A program made the translations under genes and the position numbers. This document shows positions 1 to 62,631 of a DNA stretch of 64,000 nt, piece by piece; the stretch's first letter is position 1, and every line of letters begins with the position of its first letter. The notes below the pieces were generated by a model, which saw nothing but the letters and a program-made list of their open reading frames with translations, made no database searches and was not told the DNA's origin. Source of the stretch: a virus; IMG/VR virus record IMGVR_UViG_3300045988_183789, one strand, 5' to 3'.

Positions 1-1344
1 GCTGAAAGCTCTGTCGGAGCAAGTGATGCGTCGGTGGCAGATGATGAACCTGAAACGGCTTACCCCGCCGATGAGGTCCCGGCACAGAATTCTACAAGTC
101 CGACCACACATAGCACTGCTGAGGAATCTGACTCTTCCAACACCACAGAGGCATACGAGCCTGGCAGCTCCTCTCCGATGAGCGAAACCTCCAGTAATGA
201 TTCTGGTTACGAGCCTACGGGTAGAGAAGCCACTGATAGCTTTGAGTCTGAGGATGCCGCTGGTGACGGCCTGGCTGCAACGAACCCGTCCAACGATTCC
301 AATGTGGCCGCATCTTCCAGTGACAGCGATAACGATGCCGATGATGAACCTGATTCCGCATATACACATCACAGTTCTTCTGACTATGATGACGGCGATA
401 GCGAGACGGTTCACGACAGTGATAGTGGAGCAAACAAACACTCCGATAGCGCATCCAATGGCGATGATGCTGATGACGTAGATACTGGCACTTACGAAGC
501 AGAGGATTCTCCGATTGCAGACGGTGCTGGATTCTACGGAGAAGGTACAGGCAATTCGTTTAAGGAAGACGAAATCAAGGCCGCTACGGATGACAGTATG
601 TCTTCTGCTGCGGAACCAGAAGCACAGAGCATCCACGCTGACGTTTCTGACACCACCTCTGGTGCAGTCGTGGAAACGACTACTGTACCTGATGCAAAAC
701 AAACCGGTGACGCAATGCTTGGTCAAGCTCAGGTAGATACCACGGTACAGCAGAGCAATGAGCAGGCCGAGGAAGTATCAATTCCGCCCGTTCCTCAAGG
801 TATTGTACTTTCCAATACCAGCGTCAACAAGCTCAGCGATACCAATGGTACGATTCGCTCTGCATCCGCAGGCGTATTCCAGCTGACGCGTGAGGGACTT
901 GACGAAGATACAGGTAAAACGGTATGGCGTGCAACGCTGAAACAGGATGCTGAAGGCAATCCCGTGACAGATTACAGTGCCAACACGTTCACCTTTGAGC
1001 GTACCGCTAAGTGGAACGCACAGACGAGAAGCTATCAGCCTGAGGGCTTCGATTCTGTCGCAAAAGAAGTTCGAGAAGCAGTAGATTTCCGCGACATCAG
1101 CCAAAGCGCAAATCAGAGCCGTGGCTCTCGCCGTTCGGATAAACCTCAGAATCCGCCGGAACACGAACGCTTCAAGCGTGAAAGGAATCCGAGAGCGTAC
1201 ACGGATGACGCACGACTGACTGAAGGACGTCGTACAACCTCGACAAGCCGTGGCGGAAAACACCGCGCACAGCGCAAAAGCGATACGGCAAAGAAACGTG
1301 ATAATCCGCTGAAGAATATGGATGGCTTCAAAACCAAAAGATAA
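1..1344 (+). CDS. Acidic low-complexity protein, 5' partial. Ser/Asp/Glu-rich, followed by a basic Arg/Lys-rich C-terminal tail
   Basis: The reading frame is open from position 1, so the listed GTG at 34 is probably internal. Composition is extremely biased (S, D, E, T), and the last ~80 aa are basic. No recognisable catalytic motif. Confidence 0.45.
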   Translation, partial: AESSVGASDASVADDEPETAYPADEVPAQNSTSPTTHSTAEESDSSNTTEAYEPGSSSPMSETSSNDSGYEPTGREATDSFESEDAAGDGLAATNPSNDSNVAASSSDSDNDADDEPDSAYTHHSSSDYDDGDSETVHDSDSGANKHSDSASNGDDADDVDTGTYEAEDSPIADGAGFYGEGTGNSFKEDEIKAATDDSMSSAAEPEAQSIHADVSDTTSGAVVETTTVPDAKQTGDAMLGQAQVDTTVQQSNEQAEEVSIPPVPQGIVLSNTSVNKLSDTNGTIRSASAGVFQLTREGLDEDTGKTVWRATLKQDAEGNPVTDYSANTFTFERTAKWNAQTRSYQPEGFDSVAKEVREAVDFRDISQSANQSRGSRRSDKPQNPPEHERFKRERNPRAYTDDARLTEGRRTTSTSRGGKHRAQRKSDTAKKRDNPLKNMDGFKTKR

Positions 1345-3323: not shown

Positions 3324-4661
3324 ATGAAATGTTTCTTGAAAAGGGCACTCGCGGTAGGGCTTACAGCAGCAACGCTGTGTACAAGCCTTGCGGGATGTAG
3401 AAAGAAAGATGATGGTAGCGTGTCGGATACTACGCCTATCCCGACACCGGCCATTGAGAGTACCCCTGAACCGTCGGCAAATCCGAACATTTATGGCGAC
3501 GTTGACACATCAGGTGGCAACAAAATCCAAAATGGAAAGCTGGTTCTTACGAAAATTGAACCTGCCGAGCCGAACAACTGCGCATCGAACGGCTATATGG
3601 AAGAAAAGAACCTGGATGGTACTTACCGCTATCAGGTTAAGGCGGAAACCGTTGCCGCCAAGAACCTTGTTCCGTATACGGATGCAAACGGAGCGGGTCT
3701 GAAAATCTTCTCTGGTCATACAGTCTATGTGCGTAAGACAGGCTTAGGCGTTGGTGAGATGCCTGAAACTACGGCAGATGACTCCTCCAGTACAGAAGAA
3801 ATTATCACCGATACTACGACATCAACCGATACAAGTTCCGGCTACATCGACGAAAACGGCAACTATGTTGAAGATGCCACTGATAGTAATAGAGCAACCA
3901 CTTCGTCTACGCTTTCTGATACGGACCAGAAGTGCATTGTTTCCGGCGAGGAAGTATTTGACCTTGACAACTACAGCGACGAAATCCAGTATCCTTCTGA
4001 TTTCTCGCAGCTTCGCAAAGAGGGAACATGCGAGCGCCTTTACGTTTACCATTCGAAAGAGGAGTACGAACAGGCTCTCAAAAACCGTAAAAACGGTCAG
4101 GCTATCTTGACAGGTGAAATGGATGCGCCAATCAAGAGCGTCATTTTGAACGGTTCTCTCATTCCGAAGCTCAATTACACCATCAACAGCGACGGCCGCC
4201 TGTGTGTTTCTCTTCGTGCGCTGGCAGAAGCATACGATTCAAACACAGAATATGACGATGTAGAGCATCTGCTCATTGTGCCAATCACCTACGGGGAGCG
4301 CATCTATATCCCAGTCAAAGGCATTCTCCATAACGCCAGTGAGTATTACCAGATTGACAATACAAACAACACCTTTGTGTTTACCAGCAAAAAACCGCCT
4401 GAGATTTGGACTGATACGTTCTCGCTCGCTACCACCAGTGATGTTGTGATGCCTGTCGAAGACATTGCCCGTATCCTTGGCTGGGATTTCTGGTATGGCG
4501 ACAATGTCCTGAGCGTAGTTACTGATTCTCTCGACGACACGAAAGAAGAAAACATTCTGCTTCAGGAGCAGGATGTCGAAGAAATCGAAATTGATTTGAA
4601 CGATTTACCTGATGTCGATAGTACGGAATCTGATTCAGAAAGTGAGGTGAGCGCATCGTGA
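3324..4661 (+). CDS. Secreted lipoprotein of unknown function
   Basis: Signal peptide with lipobox (LTAATLCTSLAGC). Thr/Ser/Asp-rich linker, acidic C-terminus. Confidence 0.6.
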   Translation: MKCFLKRALAVGLTAATLCTSLAGCRKKDDGSVSDTTPIPTPAIESTPEPSANPNIYGDVDTSGGNKIQNGKLVLTKIEPAEPNNCASNGYMEEKNLDGTYRYQVKAETVAAKNLVPYTDANGAGLKIFSGHTVYVRKTGLGVGEMPETTADDSSSTEEIITDTTTSTDTSSGYIDENGNYVEDATDSNRATTSSTLSDTDQKCIVSGEEVFDLDNYSDEIQYPSDFSQLRKEGTCERLYVYHSKEEYEQALKNRKNGQAILTGEMDAPIKSVILNGSLIPKLNYTINSDGRLCVSLRALAEAYDSNTEYDDVEHLLIVPITYGERIYIPVKGILHNASEYYQIDNTNNTFVFTSKKPPEIWTDTFSLATTSDVVMPVEDIARILGWDFWYGDNVLSVVTDSLDDTKEENILLQEQDVEEIEIDLNDLPDVDSTESDSESEVSAS

Positions 4662-6829
4662 CCAAATGGAACGAACTGAAGGTGAAGTTTTCTCTTCTTT
4701 CTAAAGAGGAGAAACTGGTCATCTTGTTCTGCTGCTCGTTTGTTGTTTCTCTTATCCCGGCGGGATTCATTGCGGCGGTATTTGCCGGAGAATGGGATGC
4801 GGGATTTTTCCGTAAACTGGTGCTTAGCATCACAACAGGCTATGGCATTATTTCGACTCTGATTTTCGCCGCTGCTATTACGGTTGTTATCGTACTGCTT
4901 TCTCGAAAAAACACAGACCTTAATTCTGCCAAAGAAGTCGATGACCGTGGCATGATTACCTCCAATGCTGGTACTTACGGAACAGCAGAGTGGATGTCAG
5001 AGGACGAAGCCAAAAAGGTTTATGAGGTTGGCCCTGTTGAAGATGTGACGGGTACAATTCTTGGTCAGTTTACGACCGATGGCGAAGAAGTCATTGCTTT
5101 GCCGTATGAACCGACTGGCAACCGCAACCTTATCCTTATCGGACCTCCGGGCTCTGGCAAATCTTTTGGCTATGTTCGTACTGCTGTATTCCAGTCTATC
5201 GTTCGTGGTGAGTCGGTAGTCGTTACAGACCCCAAAGGCGAAATCCACAATGATATGCGCAAATTGCTCGAAGCAAACGGCTATAAGGTAAAGGTATTCA
5301 ACCTCATCAACCTTGACCTTTCCAATGCCTGGGACTGCGTACAGGAAATCTATGACCCCATTACGGGCAACATTGATGACCAGCGTGTCATTGCGTTCTG
5401 TAAAACCGTTATCGCCAATACAGGCGGTGGCGCGAACAGCAAGGGCGACCCGTTCTGGGAGAGTTCGGAAGAAAACCTGTTCCGCGTCGCGGTTTCCTAC
5501 TGCGCCTATATGCGCGAGACAACTCTTATCAAAATCTATGAGCGCCGCACCAAAGAACTTCTCACGCAGCTGCCGTTCATTTCGGAAGAAGATGGCAAGG
5601 CACTTGTCGAAGCTGTTACAAATCCCGAATCTGCGATGGTGGACCGTCGCCGTGTTGTCGAGTACCTTGCTAAGAATCTCTATGGCGAGGAAGAGGGAGA
5701 GAAGAAGCTGCTGGCTTGGGAGGAAGATGCACCGACCAGCAACATTTCCGACATCTACAACGCTCTGATGCACAACGACCTGAACTCCTGGGAAGAGAAC
5801 TTCAAGAGCGTGCCCATGAACCACCCGGCCGCATCCGCCTGGGCCGTATTCAAAGGCATGGGCGAGCGTGTACAGCCTAACATTGTCGGTGGTCTGAATA
5901 CCCGCTTGCAGCTGTTTATGACCTTTAAGGTTCGTCGTGTTATCAGTAACGATGACATCCGCCTGGCAGACATTGGTGCTGAAAAGACCGCATTGTTCCT
6001 GATTATCTCGGACGATAACGCATCCATGCAGCTGCTTTCGTCTCTGCTTCTGAGCTTCCTGTTTAAGGACCTGAAGGAAGCGTTCGATGCAGTGGGCGGA
6101 GATGGTCGTATCCCTGTAAACGTCATTGCGGACGAGCTGGCAAATACAGGCGTCTGGCCCAACTTTGAGAAGACGATTGCTACCGCTCGTTCTCGTAAGA
6201 TTGCGGTCTCTCTTATCTTGCAGAGCTTGCCGCAGTTGACGCAGTTGTATGGCGAGGAAAACGCCGAAACCATCATTGGCTGCTGCAACACCATGCTGGT
6301 GCTTGGTTGCAACGATAAGTACACGGCCGAGTACATCTCCGACAAGAGCGGCATCGTTACGATTCGTGCCAAGAGCGTGAGCGATTCCAGAGCAAACTCC
6401 GTTGGTTATCGTGGCGCTATGCAGGGGTATTCTCTCAGCGAAGGTGATGGTAAACGCAACCTGATGAACCCTGATGAAGTTCAGCACCTTGGTAAAGAAG
6501 AAATTCTGATTATGACCAATGGTCAGAACCTGCTGAAAGCTAAGCGCTTTGGCTTTATCCATCATCCGCTGTTCTCCGACCCGCACTTTGTTCCGACTCG
6601 CTGGTCTGAACTGCCCAAGACAGTTGACCTTTATCCTGACGCTCGTAAGCATGATGCTCTGGAGTCACTGGTAGGCGACATCCAGCGTCAGAAAGAAGTC
6701 AACACCGAAATTGCGCAGAGACGTTCGGAAGAGCGTATGAATCCTCGTATGAGAAAGAGCGACCTTATCGGGAATGATAAAGTTCCTTCCAAGAAGAACG
6801 CTTTCGCAGATAAGTCCAAAAAGAAATAA
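4658..6829 (+). CDS. Type IV secretion coupling protein (VirD4/TraG family ATPase)
   Basis: N-terminal transmembrane segments. Walker A LILIGPPGSGKS and a hydrophobic-D Walker B. About 720 aa, typical size and domain order for a T4CP. GTG start overlaps the upstream stop. Confidence 0.85.
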   Translation: MTKWNELKVKFSLLSKEEKLVILFCCSFVVSLIPAGFIAAVFAGEWDAGFFRKLVLSITTGYGIISTLIFAAAITVVIVLLSRKNTDLNSAKEVDDRGMITSNAGTYGTAEWMSEDEAKKVYEVGPVEDVTGTILGQFTTDGEEVIALPYEPTGNRNLILIGPPGSGKSFGYVRTAVFQSIVRGESVVVTDPKGEIHNDMRKLLEANGYKVKVFNLINLDLSNAWDCVQEIYDPITGNIDDQRVIAFCKTVIANTGGGANSKGDPFWESSEENLFRVAVSYCAYMRETTLIKIYERRTKELLTQLPFISEEDGKALVEAVTNPESAMVDRRRVVEYLAKNLYGEEEGEKKLLAWEEDAPTSNISDIYNALMHNDLNSWEENFKSVPMNHPAASAWAVFKGMGERVQPNIVGGLNTRLQLFMTFKVRRVISNDDIRLADIGAEKTALFLIISDDNASMQLLSSLLLSFLFKDLKEAFDAVGGDGRIPVNVIADELANTGVWPNFEKTIATARSRKIAVSLILQSLPQLTQLYGEENAETIIGCCNTMLVLGCNDKYTAEYISDKSGIVTIRAKSVSDSRANSVGYRGAMQGYSLSEGDGKRNLMNPDEVQHLGKEEILIMTNGQNLLKAKRFGFIHHPLFSDPHFVPTRWSELPKTVDLYPDARKHDALESLVGDIQRQKEVNTEIAQRRSEERMNPRMRKSDLIGNDKVPSKKNAFADKSKKK

Positions 6830-6841
6830 GTATTAACTCTA

Positions 6842-6875
6842 ATCCCGGTCTTGTGATAGGCCGGGATTTTTCTTT
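6842..6875 (+). terminator. Rho-independent terminator after the coupling-protein gene
   Basis: ATCCCGG ... CCGGGAT stem followed by TTTTT. Confidence 0.6.
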
Positions 6876-6911
6876 TCCCCGATTCAGCAATGAGTCGGGA
6901 ACTACGCACAT

Positions 6912-6975
6912 CGACAGCCTCCGCGCGGCGCGTAGTGGTTAGTGCCCGTATCCTGCTATCGGGCAGCGAATGTCG
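6912..6975 (+). other. Structured-element family copy 1 (AGACAGCCTCC-core element)
   Basis: Core CGACAGCCTCCGCGCGGCG is closed by the CGACA ... TGTCG helix. Compare copies at 32972, 35504, 62632, 62962, 63630 and 63899. Confidence 0.45.
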
Positions 6976-7011
6976 ATAACATACTACATCCCTACAAAGG
7001 AGACCAATACC

Positions 7012-8172
7012 ATGAACGAGAACGAAATGCTGAACCCCACCACCGTCGAGACCGACGAGGTGACCACCCCTATTGCCCCTGCGGAGGAGGCTATGGAAAA
7101 CGCTCAGAGCGTTGCTCCTGCCGCCGAGCCTGCTGAGGAAAAAGACCCTGTCGAGGCCGTTCCCGCCCCGGCTGACGACGTAGAGGACGAGGACGATGTC
7201 CCTGAAGCTCCCCGTGCTTCTCGCCGCTTCAATGACGACGATTTGCAGATTGGTGCCTTCGTTGACGATGGCAACGATATGCTGAAAGTCGATATGCCTG
7301 AAGACCGCCGCGCCCGTGACCTCGCAGAGATGCGCCGCTGTGTGGCTGACAACAAGCGCAGCCCCCGCCGCTTCCTGCAGGGCAAGGTTTTCGGTGTCCG
7401 TCCTGTCGGTAACGGCAGCGCGGTCGTTGAAGTTACCCGTGGTACGCTGCGCGTGATGATTCAGGCCGAAGACTTCTTCCATTTCTCTCAGATGAAGGGC
7501 ATCGAGAACGATGATGAAGCCACTCGTCAGCGCCGTTTCCTGCGCAAAGCCAAATTGATGAACGGCGCTATCATCAACTTCTGCCCCTATCTGGAAGCCG
7601 AGTCTGAGGACGGCGAGGTTGTCTTCGCAGGCTCCCGCCAGGACGCTATGCAGCTCCAGCGCAATCGTCACTTCTTCGGCCGCAACGCCGATGTCAAGGA
7701 AGGCACCCGCGCCGCAGCATCTATCCTGTCTACCGGTCCCGACTACGTCATTGCTGAGGCCCTGGGCGTAGAGACCAGCATCGGTGCTGCTGCTCTGTCT
7801 GCCTATGAGTACATTGACAACGTGGCCGACAAGTTCCATGTTGGCGAAGGCATTCCTGTGGTCATCGAAGACCTGAACGTAGATGCCGAGAATGGCACTG
7901 TGAGCCTGCGCATGAACCGCGCCATCCTGGAGCGTCGTGCAAATCCCGCCATGAACATCCACAGCCTGGCGCGTGGTGGTGCTTATGGCGCAACTGTCAC
8001 GTCTGTCAATGAGCGCTTCTACCGCCTCATCGTGGATGTCGGCAACATCCAGGCCCGCGTTGCCTTGACTTCTTCTGACGAGTTGTTGACTCGTGGCGAC
8101 CGTGTTACGCTGCTGGTCTACGGCTACGACGATAAGCGCAACTACGTCTGGGGCGCTTGCCACAAGGTCTAA
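7012..8172 (+). CDS. Hypothetical protein, acidic N-terminal region
   Basis: RBS AAGGAG lies 9 nt upstream of ATG 7012. About 386 aa. No recognised motif. Confidence 0.5.
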   Translation: MNENEMLNPTTVETDEVTTPIAPAEEAMENAQSVAPAAEPAEEKDPVEAVPAPADDVEDEDDVPEAPRASRRFNDDDLQIGAFVDDGNDMLKVDMPEDRRARDLAEMRRCVADNKRSPRRFLQGKVFGVRPVGNGSAVVEVTRGTLRVMIQAEDFFHFSQMKGIENDDEATRQRRFLRKAKLMNGAIINFCPYLEAESEDGEVVFAGSRQDAMQLQRNRHFFGRNADVKEGTRAAASILSTGPDYVIAEALGVETSIGAAALSAYEYIDNVADKFHVGEGIPVVIEDLNVDAENGTVSLRMNRAILERRANPAMNIHSLARGGAYGATVTSVNERFYRLIVDVGNIQARVALTSSDELLTRGDRVTLLVYGYDDKRNYVWGACHKV

Positions 8173-9798: not shown

Positions 9799-12507
9799 AT
9801 GTTTAGAAAGAAAAATAAGCAGCAAGCTGTTCCGAATGGCGTTGTCGGTGACAGCCTGGAGAGCGTTCGTCTGACAAAGAAAGAACGCGAAGAAATTGCC
9901 AACGCCGAACGTAAGCGTATCGACAAAGAGATGCAGGCCAATGCGGACCGTTATCAAATCGTCCGCAGTACACAGCGCATTATCCCTGTTCAAGACATTT
10001 ATAACGGTGTCATTATTACAAAAGACCACCGTTATGTGAAGATTCTTGAGTTTCGGCCCATCAACTTCGGTTACATGGATGCCGAGACACAGAACCGCAT
10101 CATCTCACTCTTCTATCAGACTTTCAAGGCTGTTCCGGTCAACATCCAGTTCAAGACCTTTGCCCGTAAAGCAGATGTCGAGAAGACGATTGCTACAGTC
10201 ACTTCCTATTATCGGGAAGAGACAAACATCAAGCGCAAGCGGATGCTGAAAGCTTACATCGGCCTGCTTCGTAAGACGGCTTTGTCCGTTGGTATTACGC
10301 GCCGTTTCTTTATCATCATTGAGTTTCAGCGTACCATCAGCAATGACGGCTCTAACTTTGATATGGTGGTTGCGGACCTTAATGCAATGGCGGCTAACGT
10401 ACGCTCCCACATGGAACAGTGCGGCAATATCTTCATCCCGGCTCTGGGCGACAGCAGCCGTAATGAAGATGCCGGTATACACCAGCTGTTCTATCAGATG
10501 CTGAACCGTCGCAAGAGTGAGACGATTACGTTCCACGACCACGTTACGCCCATCATTGAACGCTATACCGAAGCGGATAAGAACGGCGTAAAGACCTCTC
10601 TGAATGCCACGGAATTGATTGCGCCAGACTGGATTGATTTTACCCATTATGACTATATTGTCATTGATGGCAAGTTCTACACCTTTGCCTACATTCCATC
10701 TACTGGATATAATCAGCGGGTGTACGCTGGTTGGATTGCTACTTTCGTAAACGCTGGCGAAGGCGTAGATATGGATGTGTTCTTTGAGCATCAATCCCGT
10801 GAAGCGGTTTACAACAAAATCAGTACCCAGCTTCGTTTGAGCCGCGCTAATGCTATGGAAAGCCATGATACAGACTCCGACTACCATGCTCGTATGGAGA
10901 AAATTTCTTCCAGCGAATATATGTTGAAAGGCTTGTCCAGCGGCGAAGAATTTTATTATATGAGCATCCTCATCACCATTGTTGGTGATAGCTTGGACGA
11001 GTTGGAATACAAGTATAACTCCCTTGAAAAGCGCGTCAAAGGCCAGGGAATGAAGATTCGTCGTGCAAACTTTATGATGGAAGAGTGCTTTGAGTCTGCG
11101 TTGCTGCCTCTGGGTAAGCTCCATAAGGACATCAAGCGCCGGGCACAGCGCAACGTGCTGACCTCTGGTGTGGCATCTTGCTATCCCTTCATTTCCTTTG
11201 AAATGCAGGACCCTGACGGCGTTATGATTGGTACAAACCGCGCCAACAACTCCCTTGTCACTATCGACATGTTCGACACGGATGTTCACGCCAACGCAAA
11301 CGCTGTTATCCTTGGTTCTTCCGGTTATGGTAAGACCTTCACCGCACAGCTTTTTGCATTGCGTCTGTCTGAAATGGATACGCAAGTGTTCGTTATCTCT
11401 CCGCTGAAAGGCTTGGAAGACTACGGCGGCGGATGCAAGGCGGTTGACGGCCAGTTCATCAGTATGGACCCGTCTTCCATCAATAGCATCAACATCATGG
11501 ATATCCGCGTGCCGGACGATGCGGACGCCAAGGAGCTGGACGACTACGAGTCTACTGGTTCTCTGCTGACCAAGAAGATTCACACCATCAAGTCCTTCCT
11601 GCATTTGGTCGTTAAGGATATGACACAGGAAGAGGAACAGCTTATTGATACAAGTCTTTACAGATGCTATAAGGACTTCGGCATCACCAATGATAACGAA
11701 TCGATTCTCGATAAAGAACACGGCGGTTATAAAAAGATGCCTCTGCTGGAAGACCTCCAGAAAGAGATGCAGAATGTTCCTGAACTTCATCGTATCTGCA
11801 ACATCCTGAACCCGCTGATTACCGGTTCAATGGCGTGTTATAATCGCCCTACCAATGTTGACCTGAAAGCCAAATACATTGTATTTGACTTCAACGGCAT
11901 GAAGGGCGCTATCCTTACGATGTCGATGTTTGTTGTTCTGGACTTCGTCTGGACCAAAATCAAAGAAGACCGTACAAAGCGCAAGGCCGTATTTATCGAC
12001 GAGTGCTGGAAGCTGATTGGCACCGACTCAAACGAGATGGCGGCAGAGGACGTTGTGGAAATCTTCCGTACAATTCGTGCTTACGGTGGCTCGGCTTTCG
12101 CTATGACGCAGGACATTTCTCAGTTCTATGAGTATAAGGGCGGCAAGTATGGTAAGGCAATCATCGGTAACGCTGACACCAAAATCATCATGCACCTTAT
12201 CCCGTCTGAAGCGCAGGCATTGCAGTCTGCCATTCAGTTGACTGATGCGGAGATGGAAAACGTCTCCAACTTGCAGCGTGGTCAAGGTCTGGTCTGTGCC
12301 GCTTCTGCCAAGCTGTTCGTTGACTTTGTTGCTGCACCTTATGAAAAGCAGGAAATCACGACAGATGCAAAGAGCTTCTATCTGCAAGAGAAAGCCCTCA
12401 AAGAGAAACAGCACAAAGAAGAGCAGGAGCGCCTGGCGGCTGAAAACGCCAAAGGTGGGTCTGACTCTAACAGCGATGACGAGGATTTGCTGAATGTGAC
12501 ATTCTGA
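9799..12507 (+). CDS. VirB4/TraE/PrgJ-family T4SS ATPase
   Basis: About 900 aa. Walker A ILGSSGYGKTF and Walker B AVFIDECWKL. The size and position after a VirB3-like gene are typical. Confidence 0.85.
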   Translation: MFRKKNKQQAVPNGVVGDSLESVRLTKKEREEIANAERKRIDKEMQANADRYQIVRSTQRIIPVQDIYNGVIITKDHRYVKILEFRPINFGYMDAETQNRIISLFYQTFKAVPVNIQFKTFARKADVEKTIATVTSYYREETNIKRKRMLKAYIGLLRKTALSVGITRRFFIIIEFQRTISNDGSNFDMVVADLNAMAANVRSHMEQCGNIFIPALGDSSRNEDAGIHQLFYQMLNRRKSETITFHDHVTPIIERYTEADKNGVKTSLNATELIAPDWIDFTHYDYIVIDGKFYTFAYIPSTGYNQRVYAGWIATFVNAGEGVDMDVFFEHQSREAVYNKISTQLRLSRANAMESHDTDSDYHARMEKISSSEYMLKGLSSGEEFYYMSILITIVGDSLDELEYKYNSLEKRVKGQGMKIRRANFMMEECFESALLPLGKLHKDIKRRAQRNVLTSGVASCYPFISFEMQDPDGVMIGTNRANNSLVTIDMFDTDVHANANAVILGSSGYGKTFTAQLFALRLSEMDTQVFVISPLKGLEDYGGGCKAVDGQFISMDPSSINSINIMDIRVPDDADAKELDDYESTGSLLTKKIHTIKSFLHLVVKDMTQEEEQLIDTSLYRCYKDFGITNDNESILDKEHGGYKKMPLLEDLQKEMQNVPELHRICNILNPLITGSMACYNRPTNVDLKAKYIVFDFNGMKGAILTMSMFVVLDFVWTKIKEDRTKRKAVFIDECWKLIGTDSNEMAAEDVVEIFRTIRAYGGSAFAMTQDISQFYEYKGGKYGKAIIGNADTKIIMHLIPSEAQALQSAIQLTDAEMENVSNLQRGQGLVCAASAKLFVDFVAAPYEKQEITTDAKSFYLQEKALKEKQHKEEQERLAAENAKGGSDSNSDDEDLLNVTF

Positions 12508-12754: not shown

Positions 12755-13345
12755 ATGTCTGAGATTCACAACACCGACATCCGCGAACTGCTTGATTCCA
12801 TTCCGGTTATCCCTAACACGCTGATGGAAGAATATCTGACCCGTCGGTATGAAATTACACCCAACAAGGCCCGCGAAATCATCTACAACGCTTGCCGCAA
12901 AGGTTCAAACCGCCGTCCTGCTTGCTACGCGACCAATGACGGACTTGCCAAAGCCGATTACATTACTATGACGAGCCTGTATCGTAAGCGTTGCCGTGCG
13001 TTCCGTGTTGCTTGCGAGTTTCTGCCGGAGAGCCGTCGATTTTCGATTCCCGCCACCAGTCCTTGGTTGCTGAGTTTTTGCTTTGATAGCAGCGTCTATT
13101 ATGTCTGTGAGTTTGAAAAAGGCAAGGAGCTCATTACGGCTGATATGATTCGCAACGCCGGTATTCGCGAAGATATGATGTCCGTTACCTCTCGAATCGC
13201 TATTCTGCGCCCTGGCACAAAGCGTGAGCTGTTGGATGGCTGCGGAATCCGCTTTTTCTGCACGGTTGACGATGATTACAACCTCGATGTGACCGAGCAG
13301 GTTCCTGACGAGGAGGTTTGGAATGGCGTTCCCATCGTTGATTGA
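12755..13345 (+). CDS. Hypothetical protein
   Basis: RBS AAAGGAGA lies 7 nt upstream of ATG 12755. Confidence 0.45.
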   Translation: MSEIHNTDIRELLDSIPVIPNTLMEEYLTRRYEITPNKAREIIYNACRKGSNRRPACYATNDGLAKADYITMTSLYRKRCRAFRVACEFLPESRRFSIPATSPWLLSFCFDSSVYYVCEFEKGKELITADMIRNAGIREDMMSVTSRIAILRPGTKRELLDGCGIRFFCTVDDDYNLDVTEQVPDEEVWNGVPIVD

Positions 13346-14096
13346 TTATAAACGATACATCGAAGAAAACGGACTTGGCAACAAGCCTACTTCCAACCAT
13401 TCGGATGTGCCGCCTGAAAAGCCGGTTCTTTACCACGATACGGCGGGATATGTAAAGAAACATATTCAAAATGCTTCCGCAATGTTAGGCACAATCCCGG
13501 ATGATATGCCACTCAATAAGGTCTCAGAGTCTACCCTGAGCAGCGTTTCCATCGAGATTTTGAAGGCGGAACGCTCAATTTTGACGTCTTTCAACGGCCG
13601 AGAAAAGTCGGTTCCGTATCAAAAAAACGTCGAGGTGGCTGCCATTCCAAAAGATTTCTGCTCTGTATCAGTACCGGCACACGCGCTTCTGGCAGTACAC
13701 TACAAGACGCTTTTGCCGCCATTCCACTATGAATGGTACAGCCGCAAAGCAAAAGAAAGAGACGATGCAGGACGACATTTTTTGGACGCAGAATTCGACA
13801 TTATTACCGAGGCGGTTGTAACAGAATACATCTCGAAGAACGGACCTATCAAGGTGCCATCAGGGCTTGTCTATCTAATATTTCGCAGGGGCATCCGACC
13901 TGGCAGAAATGTTCCGATAGACAATAATAACGTCTACACGGGGGCCGTTACTAATGCCATCAGTCGCGTACTGCAACACGGTGATGGCTGGCAGCAAATG
14001 AGCTTCGTCTATACCGCCATAGAGGATTCAGAAGGACCTTATCTGGATGTGATTTTGTGCGAAAAATCAGACATCACAAGATGGATTGAAGCGTAG
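13323..14096 (+). CDS. Hypothetical protein
   Basis: RBS GAGGAGG. Overlaps the upstream gene by 23 nt. Confidence 0.45.
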   Translation: MAFPSLIDYKRYIEENGLGNKPTSNHSDVPPEKPVLYHDTAGYVKKHIQNASAMLGTIPDDMPLNKVSESTLSSVSIEILKAERSILTSFNGREKSVPYQKNVEVAAIPKDFCSVSVPAHALLAVHYKTLLPPFHYEWYSRKAKERDDAGRHFLDAEFDIITEAVVTEYISKNGPIKVPSGLVYLIFRRGIRPGRNVPIDNNNVYTGAVTNAISRVLQHGDGWQQMSFVYTAIEDSEGPYLDVILCEKSDITRWIEA

Positions 14097-14264
14097 CTCG
14101 GATACAACAATTTTGGGGACTGCAAAATACAACATTATCAGGATGCTGTTTTTATGCCCCTTAAATTGTTGTATCCTTTCATTGTTTTTGGGCACAGTAA
14201 TAGACTTTCGGCGTATCAGGTGGTACGCTATCGTGTTTCTTATATACAAATATTAGGTGACAAA

Positions 14265-15530
14265 ATGACTAATGAACAAAGGCTTCTGTGCTATCTCTAC
14301 AGTGTAGATTCCATTCAGCGCAGGCAGCTTGTGATTGCACTGTCGGATATGCCGTATCAGAGCGTTACGCTGGCAGTACGAAATGCAGTCAAGCACGGCT
14401 ATGTAGAGGTATTTCGCAAGGATGAATCTAACTATCTGCGTATAACACCAGATGGAGTAAAGTACATCCGCTCCACGGCTCGTGATGCGCTGGATGGGCA
14501 AAAGCGAGCTACTATGAAGCGGCGACTCAAGGGTGAAAACGGCAGGCGGCTGAACCGTATGGAAGTAGTAAGCTGCATGTGTCGAGCGGCAGGCATCAAA
14601 CTCGCAAAGGAAGAACATATCCGTCTTGAAAATGTTCTGAATGCAGATGCGGATGACTACGCAAGATTCATGGACGACTACTTCTACGACAAAGGTCTGC
14701 TGTTTCTCTCTGACGAACTCTCTACAACCATCAAGGCTGAACAGACAGTTGGCGAGGAATACACAACTGGCATGAGCCGTCTGGTAGGAGTGATAGTAAA
14801 CTGCAAAGGAATCTTCTACGTTTACTGCACGCTGGACAGGTTGATGCGTTGGATTATCTCCTATGAGCGCCGCAGAGTCGCAGCTATATCCAAGCTCTTT
14901 GAGAGCAGTGACGCAGCAAACGCCAATGATGATTTTGCTGAAGCGTGTGCGTCTGTACCCAAAAGCGTCATCATTGGAAAGACTTGCGCCATGATTCCCA
15001 AAATCATCACAGGCAACAAGTACGGCAAGGTAGTCGAGAACGCAAGCAGAAGCACTATAACGGATAAGCTGATGACTCTTGCGAATCTCGAACAGGTGTA
15101 CGCACGCAACTACTTCGTTCCAACCAACACGCTCGGCGTAGAACTTCTCTCCAGAACAGTAACGCTGACACGAAGCGACCTCAACAGTATGATTGAGATG
15201 TGGCTTTCAGAAATGACTGAACGATACACAACCGTTTCATCGCGAGAGTATGTAGAAGTCTACATCGAAGACCAAGAAGATAAGACGCTCATCTTTCCCA
15301 TCATTGAACTTGAAGAGCTTGTATTCCAAAAAGCAAGTAAAGAGCGCTATCACATTGTATGTGAAAGAGGAACGCAAGACGGAATCAGCCGAGTTATGGG
15401 CAAAAAACTCATTGACTTCAAAGATATGAACAACACGCCTATGCCTGCGCACAAATATGACGACTACGGAATCCGCCGTGATGGCATTAACCCGCTAACT
15501 CATTCTGGGTATTGGGAGGAAGAACAATGA
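14265..15530 (+). CDS. Hypothetical protein with a winged-helix-like N-terminal region
   Basis: RBS AGGTGA. The N-terminal ~70 aa resemble a wHTH (QRRQLVIALSDMPYQSVTLAVRNAVKHGYVEV). Confidence 0.45.
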   Translation: MTNEQRLLCYLYSVDSIQRRQLVIALSDMPYQSVTLAVRNAVKHGYVEVFRKDESNYLRITPDGVKYIRSTARDALDGQKRATMKRRLKGENGRRLNRMEVVSCMCRAAGIKLAKEEHIRLENVLNADADDYARFMDDYFYDKGLLFLSDELSTTIKAEQTVGEEYTTGMSRLVGVIVNCKGIFYVYCTLDRLMRWIISYERRRVAAISKLFESSDAANANDDFAEACASVPKSVIIGKTCAMIPKIITGNKYGKVVENASRSTITDKLMTLANLEQVYARNYFVPTNTLGVELLSRTVTLTRSDLNSMIEMWLSEMTERYTTVSSREYVEVYIEDQEDKTLIFPIIELEELVFQKASKERYHIVCERGTQDGISRVMGKKLIDFKDMNNTPMPAHKYDDYGIRRDGINPLTHSGYWEEEQ

Positions 15531-15802
15531 TAGCAATTCGAGTATGCCCGATATGCAAGAAGAAGTTCGAGGGTAGAGTAGGCGTCCCGAAAGTCTATTG
15601 CGATGACTGCATGATAACGCAAGACATTGCAGCAATGGACGAAGCCGTAAAGGAGTCAAGTTGGTTCTTTGACGGAGATGATGAGAAATTTGAAGAGATA
15701 GAAGACGAGAAAGACCCGATTCTCGTTCCATCACTTTTGCCGCCGCCTCCACGACAGAGTAAAGAGTCTCTTTTAAGTCTCATTCAAAAGAAGCGTAGCT
15801 GA
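15527..15802 (+). CDS. Small zinc-ribbon protein (C4), acidic C-terminus
   Basis: CPICKKK-x15-CDDC motif. RBS GGGAGGAAG. Confidence 0.45.
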   Translation: MIAIRVCPICKKKFEGRVGVPKVYCDDCMITQDIAAMDEAVKESSWFFDGDDEKFEEIEDEKDPILVPSLLPPPPRQSKESLLSLIQKKRS

Positions 15803-15990
15803 TAGCGCACGCCCAAAACTTCAAAAGCAAATATTACTATTTTATGAACATCGAAGGACCACAATTGAGACAATTACGAATTCGTGGTATAATGGCGATG
15901 AAAATAGAGAAGACGAAACACGGAAGGAGCGTAGCTGCCGAAGCGTAGCCGAAGAACTACAAACCTCAAAGCGTAGCTCCTAACCGTAGG
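15790..15990. repeat. Direct-repeat array, part 1 (AAGCGTAGC / ACCGTAGG motifs, 5 copies)
   Basis: Copies are AAGCGTAGCTGA, GAGCGTAGCTGCC, GAAGCGTAGCCGAAG, AAAGCGTAGCTCC and AACCGTAGGCAC. Confidence 0.6.
15865..15893 (+). promoter_or_regulatory. Sigma-A-type promoter (TTGAGA-17-TATAAT) with a CGAATTCG box in the spacer. Variant of the GCGAATTG promoter family
   Basis: TTGAGA caattacgaattcgtgg TATAAT with an extended -10 TGg. Upstream of the thioredoxin gene. Confidence 0.5.
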
Positions 15991-16008
15991 CACTTGAGGT
16001 TTTGAGAA

Positions 16009-16674
16009 ATGACTAAGAAGTTCATTGTTCCTTACGTAGTTGCATCGCTGGCAATGGCTGCTGCAATTAGCGTGGCCAGTAGTGATGGAGCCGTAGTTGC
16101 AAGAAGCTACTCTGGATACAACAACCAGAAGCCGAGCGTAGCTGCTGACTATACCTATCAAACCGTAGGCATTCCCTGGAATAACACCTATGTTGAAGTG
16201 ACTGCGACACAGGCGAGAGAAATCAAAGATGGCATCGTTATCTTTGCGTATCCTCGCTGCCCTTACTGCCGCAACCTGATTCCTGAACTTACCGGTATTG
16301 CCAAAGAAAAGAACCAGACCGTTTACTACTGCCAAATCGATGAGTACCGCGACATCTACGCATACGACGAGAATACTGGTGCTCCTGTGATGACAAAAGC
16401 AGCAGGGGAAGGGTATGATGAACTTCTCAATTGGCTGCAAGACTACCTGGCAGATTACACGATAAGCGATAAGGATAAGAACAAGTACGAAATTGGAGAG
16501 AAGCGTATCGGCGCTCCTACCATTGTTCGCATCGAAGATGGTGAACCTGTTTCTACCTGGAAGCTGAGTTCGGTTGAAGATGTTTCGTATCCGGAGAACA
16601 AATACGACTCGTGGGATGATACTGTACGAGTTAAAGTCTCTGACTCGCTGAGAGACTACTTTGAGGAGGCATAA
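16009..16674 (+). CDS. Secreted thioredoxin-fold thiol-disulfide oxidoreductase
   Basis: N-terminal signal peptide. CxxC active site in YPRCPYCRN. Confidence 0.7.
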   Translation: MTKKFIVPYVVASLAMAAAISVASSDGAVVARSYSGYNNQKPSVAADYTYQTVGIPWNNTYVEVTATQAREIKDGIVIFAYPRCPYCRNLIPELTGIAKEKNQTVYYCQIDEYRDIYAYDENTGAPVMTKAAGEGYDELLNWLQDYLADYTISDKDKNKYEIGEKRIGAPTIVRIEDGEPVSTWKLSSVEDVSYPENKYDSWDDTVRVKVSDSLRDYFEEA

Positions 16675-16676
16675 AG

Positions 16677-16865
16677 ATGAAAGGCTTTAACATCGGATTG
16701 GTGCTGTACGTCGATTCGCAGTTTCTGGTAACGGCTTGTATTATGGCTGTTGTCTTCACGCTGACCGGCGTGACTGAATACCTTCCCACTTGGGTTATTG
16801 CGCTGTACTTCTTTGGCCTTTATGGGTTCTTTGCCTATAACGCACTCAAAGACGACGATGATTAA
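16677..16865 (+). CDS. Small two-TM membrane protein
   Basis: Strong RBS GAGGAGG. 62 aa, hydrophobic. Confidence 0.5.
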   Translation: MKGFNIGLVLYVDSQFLVTACIMAVVFTLTGVTEYLPTWVIALYFFGLYGFFAYNALKDDDD

Positions 16866-17040
16866 AGCGTAGCCCGGCGGGTGAAACCGTAGGTGCGCGT
16901 GGAACGAACCGTAGGCAGAGGATGAAAGCATCGCTGCCAATAGCAAAGGAGCTTATGAACGACGGAAGCGTAGCTGCCACCATGAAACTGGTCGCTGGTT
17001 GCGTAGCCGTCGTTCTTTTTCTTTTTAGGAGGCGTAGCCA
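16864..17040. repeat. Direct-repeat array, part 2 (AAGCGTAGC / AACCGTAGG motifs, 7 copies)
   Basis: Copies are AAGCGTAGCCCGG, AACCGTAGGTGCG, AACCGTAGGCAGAGG, AAGCGTAGCTGCC, TTGCGTAGCCGTCG and AGGCGTAGCCAAAC. Confidence 0.6.
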
Positions 17041-17043: not shown

Positions 17044-17277
17044 ATGGTATATGAAGTGATAAGTCCGAGAGGACGCGGAACAGGAACTATCATTGGAGTT
17101 CATACGGAATCCGCACAGTGCATTGACTCTCTTGATATGCAAAAAGCGATGGTAGCAGGAGGTAGTAAAATCACCTTTGAGGGGACGACAGAAGAATATG
17201 AAGCTGTAAAGGATAAGCTGCATCCGAAGACGAAGGTGACTATTTTGAAAGAAGCCGGGAAGAAAACGAAGAAATAA
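17044..17277 (+). CDS. Hypothetical small protein
   Basis: RBS AGGAGG. 77 aa. Confidence 0.45.
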   Translation: MVYEVISPRGRGTGTIIGVHTESAQCIDSLDMQKAMVAGGSKITFEGTTEEYEAVKDKLHPKTKVTILKEAGKKTKK

Positions 17278-25850: not shown

Positions 25851-26005
25851 GTCAAGGTCTTCCACAGTTGTAGAGTAACTAATGGGATTGCAAACGGCAA
25901 ATTCTTCCATACCCCTTGCATCCCACCACTTGATAGGCTATAATAACAACAGTCGGTTGTTATATGCGAATTAGGAACCATCTGTACGAATTGAGGTTGT
26001 ATATT

Positions 26006-27274
26006 ATGGCAAAAGAGCGAGCCATCCTTCATTGCGATATGAACTGTTTCTATGCCAGCTGCGAGATGGCCTACCATCCCGAATTGCGGGACAAGCCGAT
26101 TGCAGTATGCGGTGACCCAGAGCGACGGAGCGGCATCGTATTGACAGCTTCGTATCCGGCCAAGCGGATGGGGGTAAAAACCGGTATGCCGCTTTGGGAG
26201 GCGCAGCAGCATTGCAGAGACATCACCTTTATCCCGGCTCACTATGACCTATACACCCGATTCAGTGGCTATACAAGAGAAATCTTCCTTCGCTACACAG
26301 ACCAGGTCGAACCGTTTGGTTTGGATGAGGCCTGGCTCGATTGTACCGCGAGTCAGTCTCTCTTTGGGACAGGGGAGGAGATAGCAAAGAAAATCTCCGA
26401 CACCGTCAAGGACGAACTCGGCATTACCTGCTCGGTCGGAGTCAGCTGGAACAAGACGATGGCAAAGCTCGGCTCGGACTATAAAAAGCCGGATGCCATT
26501 ACGGTCATCAATAGGCAGAACTTTGAGAAGATAGTATGGCCGCTGCCTGCTTCAGATTTGCTATATGTTGGGAGAAAGACAGCCGCCAAGTTAGACAACT
26601 ATGCTATTCATACCATTGGAGACTTGGCAAAGACAAGACCCCAGTTTTTGCAGGAGAAGCTCGGCAAGGTAGGACTCTTGCTCTGGAGATTTGCCAACGG
26701 CCTGGATTCTGACCCGGTGGCGAAGTACGAGCAGCGGGAGGTGCTTGCTCCCATCAAGAGCATCGGAAATAGCTGGACGACACCACGGGACTTAAAGACC
26801 GACCAGGATGTTTGGATAGTGCTTTACCTGCTCGCAGAGAGTGTCGCGGCACGCCTCCGAGAGAGCCATTTCCGATGCCGAGGCGTGGAGGTGAGTTTGA
26901 GGGACTCCAACCTGTTCAGCTTCGAGCACCAGATGAAGCTGTCCCTGCCGACGATGCAGGAGCAGGAGATAGCGACGGCCGCGTTCACGTTATATAAAAA
27001 GCACTATCATTGGAGCGAGCATCTTCGTTCCATTGGCGTGCGGGCCATAGACCTACAGCCGGATACGGAGCCTTGCCAAATCTCGTTCGACTTCAGTGCC
27101 GAAAAGCAAGAAGAGATGGAACGCTTAGAATCTGCCATTGATGGTGTCCGAAATAGATTTGGATACTATTCCGTGCAGCGAGCCGTGATGTATAAGGACC
27201 GACTCCTCTCACATTGCGACGCGAGGGCAGACCATACGATTCACCCACACGGATACTTACAAGGGAGCATATAA
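26006..27274 (+). CDS. Y-family DNA polymerase (DinB/UmuC/ImpB family)
   Basis: N-terminus AILHCDMNCFYASCE with the conserved D and CFYAS motif, typical of Y-family catalytic cores. About 420 aa. Confidence 0.85.
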   Translation: MAKERAILHCDMNCFYASCEMAYHPELRDKPIAVCGDPERRSGIVLTASYPAKRMGVKTGMPLWEAQQHCRDITFIPAHYDLYTRFSGYTREIFLRYTDQVEPFGLDEAWLDCTASQSLFGTGEEIAKKISDTVKDELGITCSVGVSWNKTMAKLGSDYKKPDAITVINRQNFEKIVWPLPASDLLYVGRKTAAKLDNYAIHTIGDLAKTRPQFLQEKLGKVGLLLWRFANGLDSDPVAKYEQREVLAPIKSIGNSWTTPRDLKTDQDVWIVLYLLAESVAARLRESHFRCRGVEVSLRDSNLFSFEHQMKLSLPTMQEQEIATAAFTLYKKHYHWSEHLRSIGVRAIDLQPDTEPCQISFDFSAEKQEEMERLESAIDGVRNRFGYYSVQRAVMYKDRLLSHCDARADHTIHPHGYLQGSI

Positions 27275-43386: not shown

Positions 43387-44049
43387 ATGAACAAAAACAT
43401 CCATTATACCGCAACGCACATCACCTGTGAGTTGGAAAACGACATCTACAATTACATCGAAAGCCAGCTGGCAAAGAAGCTCGTACAAAAAGCTGCCGCC
43501 GGGCGCAAGCAGTATTTCTATTATGGCAACGACTCGGACAGCACGGCCATGCAGGTTGCGATGACCAATGAAGAAGCAAAGCACCTGGCTGAATCTTCTG
43601 TCTTGCTTGCCGAGCGGCTCATGGTGCTGTACAACATGACGGCTGGTTTCAAGAACATCGAGATGCAGGCAACCACCGGCAAGCCGAAAGAAGCTGCCTG
43701 GCCCAAGGTCTACAATACGATGGTTGCGAAAGGTTCGCCCTTGTATGATGAGCCGCTCCTCGGCCGCGTTTACAACCTGCCAAGCTACTATGCTTTGAAG
43801 AAGTACGACCGCCAGCTGATGTCCGACATGTATGAAGCCATGATGATGGTTGTGTACGATGCGGCCGTCGAGCTCAAAGGCCAGTGGGATACAAACGGCA
43901 AGATGACCTTGCAGAACCCTCTGTTCGCACATACCGCCGTGACCGTCTTCAACGGTCTGCTTGGTGCCACGACGATGCGCTACAAGGTTCTCAAAGATAC
44001 GCCCGCCGGGGTTATGGAGGGAATGCACATTGAATCTGCTACGGTTTAA
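43387..44049 (+). CDS. Hypothetical protein
   Basis: RBS AAAGAGG. Confidence 0.45.
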   Translation: MNKNIHYTATHITCELENDIYNYIESQLAKKLVQKAAAGRKQYFYYGNDSDSTAMQVAMTNEEAKHLAESSVLLAERLMVLYNMTAGFKNIEMQATTGKPKEAAWPKVYNTMVAKGSPLYDEPLLGRVYNLPSYYALKKYDRQLMSDMYEAMMMVVYDAAVELKGQWDTNGKMTLQNPLFAHTAVTVFNGLLGATTMRYKVLKDTPAGVMEGMHIESATV

Positions 44050-62530: not shown

Positions 62531-62631
62531 CTGGTTTTCATCGTTCCTCCGTTGAAATCCAAAATCCCGCTTGATGAATCGTAACTTCTTGATACGATGC
62601 TATACACACATCTTGCGGGCTATGTCACCAT

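Follow-up and report, generated by a model that had tools for sequence, protein, structure and literature searches.

The 64,000 nt stretch of DNA analysed here (the window) carries an array of short direct repeats, GCGTAGC and its variant CCGTAGG, which is a real, selected signal: a conserved cis-element specific to one family of mobile elements. All 13 exact copies lie on the + strand between positions 15793 and 17038 (approximately 1.25 kb), directly after the conjugation (T4SS) genes, and no exact copy of either variant occurs on the minus strand of that interval. The reading that we favour, although tentatively, is that the motif acts in cis and is recognised on the sense strand while this is single-stranded, either in nascent RNA or in the non-template DNA; a putative factor bound to it would set terminator read-through or translation. 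Such single-stranded recognition, in the course of transcription or afterwards, is more likely than a role as a classical plasmid iteron, centromere or oriT site.

GCGTAGC is found at positions 15793, 15929, 15943, 15971, 16136, 16867, 16968, 17001 and 17032, and CCGTAGG at 15984, 16163, 16887 and 16909. Chance would place about 0.096 copies in 1250 nt of one strand (Poisson P(≥13) ~9e-24). Across the window, GCGTAGC occurs 16 times against an expectation of 6.35 ± 2.6 and CCGTAGG 11 times against 3.5, and GCGTAGC ranks top among all 7-mers of the window for local clustering, with nine copies in 1.3 kb. The spacing of the copies is irregular, ranging from 13 to 136 nt (13, 14, 20, 22, 28, 31, 33, 59 and 136 nt). 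The repeat unit is 7–12 nt long, and an extended consensus, (R)AA-[G/C]CGTAG[C/G]-Y-G-C, was built from 59–96 non-redundant family instances. The original prediction of at least 12 direct repeats is borne out by this count, as are the five copies that it placed upstream of the thioredoxin gene; the thioredoxin coding sequence contains two copies (16136 and 16163) rather than one, and of the seven copies placed downstream six are exact, the seventh (GCATCGC, 16927) being degenerate in the window and an intact GCGTAGC in relatives. In the rest of the window the motif occurs at background density, with two exceptions. The first exception is a single GCGTAGC (14091–14097, + strand) whose TAG is the stop codon of a 257 aa gene (13323–14096), and which is kept at the equivalent place in L001 (3998), L004 (4038), L011 and L135; the second is a cluster of three GCGTAGC copies on the + strand (46395, 46554 and 46606; 46395–46612) within the coding sequence of a UvrD-like/PD-(D/E)XK helicase.

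The element that carries the array is a large uncharacterised conjugative element of human-gut Clostridiales, with a Firmicute host. A genome scan with a VirB4 alignment matched one Clostridiales MAG, a scan with the thioredoxin protein gave no matches, and no nucleotide similarity to annotated plasmids or phages was detected. The elements of this family are abundant, uncultured conjugative replicons of 220–270 kb equipped with tRNA arrays, and the majority of their genes belong to no recognisable family. Nothing relevant to the motif was found in the literature, and no Rfam family matched at E ≤ 1, apart from one spurious miRNA match. Several known sequence types were dropped for want of a match, namely the cre/CcpA box, ECF-sigma promoters, ssoA CS-6, Chi/KOPS-like polar sequences, tRNA-fragment mimicry and the Cas6f repeat.

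Within the family, the array is still found in related elements whose neighbouring protein is as little as 62% identical, and smaller clusters of the motif occur in other intergenic regions of the family, including ones far from this locus. Comparison of variants of one locus showed invariant 12-mers separated by divergent spacers; the motif stays fixed while the spacers and neighbouring synonymous sites drift. Clustered copies occupy only the gene strand in every family locus, a bias in which gene strand is inseparable from replicon or transferred strand because the elements are almost entirely unidirectional in gene orientation.

It is very unlikely, in the light of this conservation, that the array has no dedicated function and is a by-product of slippage, unequal recombination between short repeats or coding constraints. 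Arrays do grow and shrink by recombination between copies, as in a ~66 nt indel bounded by GCGTAGCtgc that distinguishes L174 from L152, and sites are gained and lost individually (at 30.6 kb the window has no copies, and relatives have three). Many unrelated pattern matches in public data are also plain tandem coding repeats: a three-copy pattern scan of viral contigs returned mostly in-frame tandem coding repeats, which were filtered out, and the L046 and L122 clusters were excluded as coding CVA repeats and a ~100 nt tandem repeat, respectively. However, a by-product would not be expected to remain invariant amid drifting spacers and synonymous sites, to hold its position in relatives with only 62% protein identity, to be strict in both orientation and complementarity, or to show spacing that is not tandem. 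The two copies in the thioredoxin gene add to this argument. They fall in variable signal-peptide and linker codons within the first ~160 nt of the gene, and the motif codons AGC GTA GCT (SVA) are retained in the plasmid variants, whereas non-plasmid homologues have other residues; a degenerate copy in the same gene (GCGTGGC, 16070) is intact in L125. Within the early coding sequence the motif, judged from these codons, appears to dictate the amino acids and not the reverse.

The outer bases of the motif are complementary in every array copy. CGTAG pentamers lying within 100 nt of another copy are flanked by G..C in 54 cases and C..G in 10, and never by G..G or C..C; background CGTAG pentamers have complementary flanks in 9 cases and non-complementary flanks in 13 (Fisher p = 6e-10 against clustered copies). 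On sequence grounds, the unit can fold as a mini-hairpin in which a 2 bp stem (S-C...G-S′) closes a G-T/U-A triloop; AA usually precedes the unit, and YGC usually follows it. The closing C:G pair never varies, the outer pair covaries between G:C and C:G, and all 64 array instances obey the rule of a GNA triloop, a C:G closing pair and an outer G:C or C:G pair. A candidate third pair (−1:+7), which is A:T in 50 of 96 instances, is weakly supported. The number of independent events behind the covariation may be very small, since comparison of orthologous copies revealed no switch between G..C and C..G, and the C..G class has somewhat different 3′ flanks from the G..C class. Covariation of the outer bases as a base pair is not accounted for by recognition of a double-stranded site.

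The positions of the copies relative to genes and transcription signals are a further line of evidence. The first copy (15793–15799) lies in the final codons of a 91 aa zinc-ribbon protein gene (CPIC...CDDC; 15527–15802, + strand). Downstream of it is a strong sigma-A type promoter on the + strand (15865–15893, TTGAGA-N17-TGgTATAAT, 11 of 12 matches plus the TG), which forms a conserved block in the alignment with relatives, and from which transcription would start near 15901. The four copies of sub-array A (15929–15990, + strand) sit at +27 to +90 relative to this conserved extended −10 promoter, in what would be the 5′ UTR of the thioredoxin gene, and a Shine–Dalgarno sequence follows 6 nt downstream of the last of them. 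Taken whole, the 5′ UTR has no significant predicted fold (z −0.66). The gene for the secreted thioredoxin-fold protein (16009–16674, + strand) is followed by that for a 62 aa small membrane protein (16677–16865, + strand), which co-occurs with it in motif-positive lineages. Sub-array B (16867–17038, + strand), comprising the six exact downstream copies and the degenerate one, begins 1 nt past the membrane-protein stop codon; in the family, too, arrays start within a few nucleotides of stop codons.

Sub-array B also contains an intrinsic terminator (16957–17028, + strand), with a hairpin at 16957–17015 (−34.9 kcal/mol, z −4.8) followed by a T-run. The motif copies at 16968 and 17001 form opposite arms of this hairpin, partly via G:U pairs. 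The terminator is also present in L001 and L004, where two motif copies again make up its opposing arms, with three compensatory pairs, and an independent case is provided by L087, in which the A-G-C of the motif is the base of the 5′ arm of another terminator; most terminators in the window are free of the motif. Immediately 3′ of the terminator is a gene for a 77 aa lysine-rich protein (17044–17277, + strand), which matched no family and no PDB entry, and the last copy of sub-array B overlaps its ribosome-binding site.

The covariation, the gene-strand bias, the transcribed positions, the terminator arms and the selection on the motif all point to single-stranded reading on the sense strand. 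Because G:U pairs in the terminator arms work only in RNA, this part of the array points to use at the RNA level. The intrinsic weakness of a 2 bp RNA hairpin counts against an RNA reading; a review gives a Tm of 39 °C for r(GCGAAAGC) against 76.5 °C for the DNA form (PMC13037366). We envisage that a putative trans-acting factor, of element or host origin, would bind the motif, and that an occupied motif would compete with the terminator hairpin and so cause antitermination or attenuation. Expression of the 77 aa gene would hinge on read-through of the 16957–17028 terminator. At the copy that abuts a ribosome-binding site, occupancy could alter translation. The expression level of the thioredoxin/membrane-protein cassette, and that of genes further downstream, would thereby be determined by occupancy.

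Several RNA-based regulators, including TRAP at the trp leader, HutP, BglG/LicT-RAT, and CsrA with its CsrB-type sponges, act on several short sites in leader or intercistronic RNA, a number of which are located in the loops of small hairpins. As in these attenuators, sites of the array coincide with the 5′ arm of an intrinsic terminator or with a ribosome-binding site: in sub-array B both terminator arms are involved, and in L087 the AGC at the stem base. The irregular spacing is like that of CsrA sites, and sub-array B followed by its terminator resembles a sponge-like 3′ element of the CsrB type. However, S-C-GUA-G-S′ matches none of the motifs of these systems, the regular 2–4 nt spacing of TRAP and HutP sites is lacking, and known ops-type or RAT-type elements have copy numbers far below the 13 found here. 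Antitermination and attenuation are employed by the conjugation operons of Gram-positive bacteria (PMC8191782, PMC8955417, 10.1101/2025.11.24.689506).

A close parallel for a signal read in non-template DNA is ops, the RfaH recruitment element, a short non-template-strand hairpin in leader regions of long operons of horizontal origin, the F tra operon among them; in this hairpin a C:G pair closes a GGTA loop and the flipped pair C3G/G8C partly restores function (PMC5995543). The array motif likewise closes its loop, GTA, with a C:G pair, and in most cases T-G follows immediately 3′. Its loop is one nucleotide shorter, however, and the motif (A)AGCGTAGCTGC misses the 12 nt ops consensus GGCGGTAGnnTG; its copies number 3–13, against one or two for ops, the host belongs to the Firmicutes, and the window encodes no NusG/RfaH/LoaP paralogue. 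A Pfam scan of the ~70 window ORFs found no gene of the NusG/KOW, ANTAR, PRD, CsrA, TRAP or HutP type, and no BglG/LicT or PyrR domain.

The principal competing explanation is that the array is bound by protein as double-stranded DNA, either as the oriT binding site of a MOB_C-type (TraX-like) relaxase or as a set of operators or centromere-like sites for a regulator that acts globally on the element; we regard this as possible, but doubtful. The array was at first likened to plasmid iterons or partition centromeres, and there is a resemblance, in that same-strand direct repeats form two blocks around a small operon on a plasmid-like element. Plasmid iterons are repeats of ~17–22 bp with regular helical-phase spacing, in a non-coding origin with an adjacent rep initiator gene, and partition centromeres of the ParR/ParB/TubR type have a partition NTPase gene (ParA/ParM/TubZ) alongside and a binder whose specificity matches the repeats. 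The units of 7–12 nt found here, with their irregular spacing and their placement in coding sequence, 5′ UTR and terminator arms, do not fit that description; compared with R1 parC and tubC, they are much shorter, and clusters are dispersed to other loci. As originally noted, no ParA, Rep or relaxase gene is adjacent, and profile scans of the window ORFs recognised none: Pfam found no ParA, ParM or TubZ, neither Pfam nor NCBIfam found a Rep-family domain in the ~70 ORFs, and no known relaxase was recognised in the 64 kb. The cumulative GC skew of the window shows no switch.

A regulator that depends on promoter geometry is also disfavoured. Several arrays lie 20–150 bp upstream of promoters, as an operator might; L130, L103, L095 and L136 have arrays upstream of a promoter, whereas that of the window is downstream of one, and in L136 some copies are only 8 nt apart or overlap, with the Y-G flank not kept. 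The lack of a fixed array–promoter geometry, together with the overlapping copies, argues against such an operator.

An oriT binding site is a possible role for the array, and its appeal lies in the neighbouring gene (14265–15530, + strand), the last large gene of the T4SS module, which encodes a conserved 421 aa protein. This protein has an N-terminal winged helix of the MarR/TubR type, a fold that resembles TubR among others, and a ~320 aa C-terminal domain whose fold weakly resembles nickases of the restriction-endonuclease type, in matches that fall short of usual significance (Foldseek E ≥ 0.13). The MOB_C relaxases bind direct repeats and have a restriction-endonuclease-like catalytic domain related to PD-(D/E)XK enzymes, and TraX of pAD1 uses an N-terminal wHTH to bind five direct repeats 70–120 bp from nic (PMC12857230). 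The arrangement in the window, with direct repeats behind a T4SS module whose last large gene encodes a wHTH and weakly nuclease-like protein, is similar to that of pAD1 TraX and CloDF13 MobC, and no other relaxase was found in the 64 kb. On the basis of these fold matches the 421 aa protein is a candidate for DNA processing, and perhaps a relaxase. However, it shows no sequence similarity to proteins in 72,556 plasmids, NCBIfam or Pfam, and no catalytic motif was identified in it.

Two distant, motif-negative relatives bear on the identity of the binder. At the equivalent place, L132 carries seven direct repeats of ~19 bp at ~31 bp spacing and L134 three to four copies of CGGGTACCTG; this substitution of one direct-repeat array for another, together with the long inverted repeat at 16957–17015, would suit a duplex binding array. 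The original prediction had named the upstream wHTH-like protein as the candidate binder, and a winged helix is indeed present, but its recognition helix (PYQSLTLAVRxAxxHGY) does not differ between lineages that carry the motif and lineages that lack it, P0078 and P0093 being identical over this segment. Given this lack of co-variation with the motif, we disfavour the protein as the specific binder. The zinc-ribbon protein was rejected as a binder because its gene is present in the motif-negative L132 and L134 and absent from the motif-positive L136. The thioredoxin was likewise rejected as the partner of the array, its homologues in other contexts (L005–L010) being array-free; the ‘221 aa’ gene of L134 is not a thioredoxin homologue. 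A duplex-binding array also leaves unexplained the base-pair covariation, the irregular spacing with some overlapping copies, and the motif clusters at distant intergenic loci of relatives.

Single-stranded reading need not occur in RNA or during transcription. The copies could instead fold into mini-hairpins in single-stranded DNA, whether of the transferred strand or of the lagging-strand template, and serve to prime synthesis of the complementary strand (ssi/sso-like) or as sites for single-stranded DNA polymerases or binding proteins after conjugative entry, a reading that we consider quite improbable. ‘Extraordinarily stable’ DNA mini-hairpins follow the rule of a GNA triloop, a C:G closing pair and an outer G:C or C:G pair; GC..GC and CC..GG stems form the stable hairpin, CG..CG and GG..CC stems do not, and d(GCGTAGC) has a Tm of 70 °C (PMC13037366). 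Both array variants match d(GCGNAGC)/d(CCGNAGG) exactly. The natural examples, which include G4 oric, ssiA of RSF1010 (CCGAAGG) and the early promoters of the phage N4 vRNAP (PMC13037366), are single-strand initiation signals and single-stranded DNA promoters, but they occur singly inside larger origin or promoter structures, not in arrays. Confinement of the motif to one strand is consistent with such a role; clusters just 3′ of genes on a conjugative element of >220 kb would suit repeated priming, and the genes downstream of the array, rich in counter-defence and repair types, resemble a leading region. Conversely, no primase was found among the scanned window ORFs, a possible analogue in L134 has a GG-GTA-CC stem that breaks the stable-hairpin rule, the G:U-dependent pairing in the terminator points to RNA, and sites at the 5′ end of the transferred strand would be of little use in copying downstream DNA. 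It is conceivable, although unlikely, that the arrays are the first natural multi-copy use of stable DNA mini-hairpins as a single-stranded DNA signal, either for ops-like recruitment of a new non-NusG elongation or antitermination factor in a Firmicute megaplasmid, or as priming or loading sites on the transferred strand.

Overall, the recurrence of the motif at gene boundaries, in a leader and in terminators offers a handle on the control of a large one-directional gene set. An oriT binding site would define the transfer origin of these elements and a new relaxase family. If the motif is read as RNA or non-template DNA, it would represent a new attenuation or antitermination module with a putative factor; and if the single-stranded DNA mini-hairpin signal proves true, very large mobile elements transcribed in one direction would have a strand-specific cis-signal of a new class.

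Between positions 15793 and 17038 of the window, the + strand carries 13 exact copies of the heptamer S-CGTAG-S′ (nine GCGTAGC and four CCGTAGG), and a scan of the − strand of the same interval found none. Chance would give approximately 0.1 copies per 1250 nt on a single strand (Poisson P ~9e-24), and GCGTAGC ranked first for local clustering among all 7-mers of the 64 kb window. With 13 same-strand copies counted, the original prediction of a repeat array around the thioredoxin gene (16009–16674) was essentially right in its description, and it is the copy count that needs adjustment: the thioredoxin CDS contains two copies rather than one, and the seven proposed downstream copies are six exact copies and a degenerate one at 16927, which is intact in relatives. 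Motif density elsewhere in the window is at background level, save for a single + strand copy at 14091, the TAG of which is a stop codon, and a + strand cluster of three GCGTAGC copies (46395–46612) inside the CDS of a UvrD-like/PD-(D/E)XK helicase (45587–48415), where two of the three use the AGC-GTA-GCT reading frame. The window scan also revealed a dispersed excess of CCGTAGG on the − strand (CCTACGG on +), with seven occurrences (214, 4288, 19852, 41562, 44064, 52273 and 61782) versus approximately 1.7 expected per strand; the copy at 19852 falls within a terminator hairpin, and the excess is possibly a codon effect.

The consensus from 59–96 non-redundant instances is (R)AA-[G/C]CGTAG[C/G]-Y-G-C. 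An ascertainment-free test of the flanks considered all CGTAG pentamers with another copy no more than 100 nt away. These clustered pentamers were flanked by G..C in 54 cases, C..G in 10, C..T in two and A..T in one, and never by G..G or C..C, compared with nine complementary and 13 non-complementary S..S flanks in the background (p = 6e-10). The complementarity of the flanks therefore points to a unit comprising a 2 bp stem and a GTA triloop, in which an outer pair that is variable yet complementary and an invariant inner C:G pair close the loop. The 3′ flanks of the C..G class differ in part from those of the G..C class and no switch from G..C to C..G was seen between orthologous copies, so the independent compensatory events may be few. 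In DNA, GC-GNA-GC and CC-GNA-GG fold as mini-hairpins, CG..CG and GG..CC do not, and the Tm given for d(GCGTAGC) is 70 °C (PMC13037366). The window motif fits this published sequence rule exactly, a match that speaks for mini-hairpins formed in ssDNA with a role on the transferred strand, although we regard that reading as improbable. The motif hairpin also resembles that of ops, the RfaH recruitment signal, whose G-G-T-A loop, in the non-template strand, is closed by C3:G8, with T6 flipping into RfaH (PMC5995543).

A strong, conserved promoter (TTGAGA-N17-TGgTATAAT; 15865–15893) precedes four copies (15929–15990), which are thus placed in the 5′ UTR of the thioredoxin gene. The first ~160 nt of the CDS hold two to three further copies, within the variable segment that encodes the signal peptide and linker; there, plasmid variants read AGC GTA GCT as S-V-A and non-plasmid homologues have unrelated residues. 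The downstream sub-array B (16867–17038) starts 1 nt past the stop codon of the 62 aa membrane protein gene and ends with a conserved intrinsic terminator, in which a T-run comes after the hairpin (16957–17015; −34.9 kcal/mol, z −4.8). Two of the copies make up opposite arms of this hairpin, pairing mostly via G:U, and the seventh copy overlaps the RBS of the following gene. A separate instance is the related locus L087, where the A-G-C of the motif forms the base of the 5′ arm of another terminator. No Rfam family matched. A conserved block, TTTATGAACAT, lies at 15836–15846, just 5′ of the −35 element in the extended −10 promoter, and recurs in several otherwise diverged intergenic regions (L001, L004 and L095-type loci); it may be an operator for another regulator.

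The array is retained on the same strand and at the same positions in seven syntenic relatives (L001–L004, L011, L125 and L135; thioredoxin identity 62–98 %, VirB4 86–88 %), with diverged intergenic surroundings. In the more distant L136, where the ~420 aa neighbour protein is just 62 % identical, 13 GCGTAGC copies surround the equivalent genes; the AA and TGC flanks are gone, which identifies the 7-mer as the core unit, and some copies overlap or sit 8 nt apart. This pattern of conservation makes an array without function very unlikely. Neither the motif nor the thioredoxin cassette was present in L132–L134 (42–48 % identity), and thioredoxin homologues in other genomic contexts had no array. 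At the array-equivalent position, L132 has seven ~19 bp direct repeats (AAACCGCAAnATGTGGCC-like; ~31 bp spacing; 12123–12345), each with a 5 bp inverted repeat; they lie just 3′ of a terminator, in the position equivalent to sub-array B, and have the look of genuine iterons or of a protein-binding array. L134 has three to four copies of CGGGTACCTG there, C-GGGTACC-TG, plus one GGGTAGC (11343–11441), between the ~420 aa and zinc-ribbon genes. Their GTA triloop and TG flank match those of the window motif, whereas the stem is GG..CC; they may be an analogue particular to this lineage, or the match may be a coincidence arising from a KpnI-type palindrome.

Such analogous arrays in distant relatives are one argument for a duplex DNA array, either an oriT binding site or an operator, which we consider possible but rather unlikely; the others are its location after the T4SS genes and beside the gene for a wHTH/nuclease-like protein. 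The window is a portion of a conjugative element, encoding a VirD4-type coupling protein (4658–6829), a VirB4/TraG-type ATPase (9799–12507) and an M23 peptidase, with almost all genes on the + strand. The final large gene of the T4SS module is conserved across all relatives and encodes the 421 aa wHTH protein (14265–15530). This protein had been proposed as the motif binder, but its recognition helix is essentially the same in motif-positive and motif-negative lineages, which argues against its being the reader specific to the motif. In architecture it is reminiscent of MOB_C relaxases; one of these, pAD1 TraX, combines wHTH and PD-(D/E)XK domains and binds five direct repeats (PMC12857230). 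Searches of plasmid proteins, NCBIfam and Pfam found no similarity, and the 64 kb yielded no other relaxase. With its homologues (P0023–P0138), it forms a sizeable metagenome-only family (116 clusters, down to 40 % identity), the genes of which always end the T4CP...VirB4...DUF5697 module. This wHTH and possible nuclease family may represent a new family of relaxases or of DNA-processing proteins.

Genes 3′ of the array are of counter-defence and repair type, in a long one-directional run (17383–54250) that resembles a plasmid leading region and includes DUF6557, two metallophosphoesterases, a Y-family polymerase (25964–27274), a SLOG/YpsA protein, flotillin, an HNH protein, NADAR (43961–44473), the UvrD/PD-(D/E)XK helicase, a sortase and an MBL-fold protein; two Mor-like regulators are also encoded 3′ of the array. 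No Rep, ParA, known relaxase, primase or NusG-like protein was detected in the window. Nucleotide and protein searches of annotated plasmids and phages gave no matches; the sole genome match was a 224 kb contig of a human-gut Clostridiales MAG, and metagenome relatives reach 234–273 kb. Several contigs of the family are classed as viral in IMG/VR, yet encode a T4SS. The family also carries tRNA gene arrays (four genes at 62455–63260, after the repair-type run; 16 in L136, 11197–13270), which are unusual among conjugative plasmids and recall huge phages.

Scans for the motif pattern in viral and metagenome collections, which also recovered irrelevant tandem coding repeats, found several further loci of the same element family (~70 % identical to window 30–38 and 54–62 kb), each with one cluster of three copies of AAGCGTAGCTGC. 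These clusters are invariably intergenic and on the gene strand, begin at or just past a stop codon, and lie either 5′ of an extended −10 promoter or adjoining an intrinsic terminator. The orthologous 30.6 kb site of the window has no cluster, so individual clusters are gained and lost. Among variants of one locus, the 12-mers are invariant and the spacers drift. Two sub-array B orthologues, L174 and L152, differ by a clean ~66 nt indel (two CCGTAGG and one GCGTAGC) edged on either side by GCGTAGCtgc; unequal recombination between copies of the motif gave rise to it, and array copy number changes in this way. L002 has a paralogous extra sub-array B (5292–5395; CCGTAGG then three GCGTAGC; ~70 % identity with the original) in non-coding DNA past metallophosphoesterase genes, near an IS605-type TnpB gene (6199–7320, − strand); here, the array module has either duplicated or changed position. 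L083, L095 and L087 share an upstream gene, motif cluster, promoter and RBS, then diverge abruptly, either from the start codon of the following gene or immediately past the first motif copy; this suggests that cassettes are exchanged as modules, with these intergenic elements as the junctions.

Our preferred, though tentative, reading is that the motif is a signal read single-stranded on the sense strand. It is favoured by the complementarity of the outer pair, by strict gene-strand orientation (gene strand and replicon strand are not separable in the available data, as the elements are unidirectional), by the presence of copies in UTRs, early CDS, 3′ UTRs and terminator arms, and by a promoter geometry that is not fixed, with some copies close-packed or overlapping. 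Because copies are embedded in terminator arms with G:U pairs, transcription-coupled control is the best single explanation; antitermination, attenuation or translational control would involve a factor that binds nascent RNA or non-template DNA. A literature search found no published description of the motif, which lies outside every defined family. It is a new cis-element in an uncharacterized family of gut megaplasmid-like elements, and its mode of action is most likely similar to that of known attenuation or antitermination signals.
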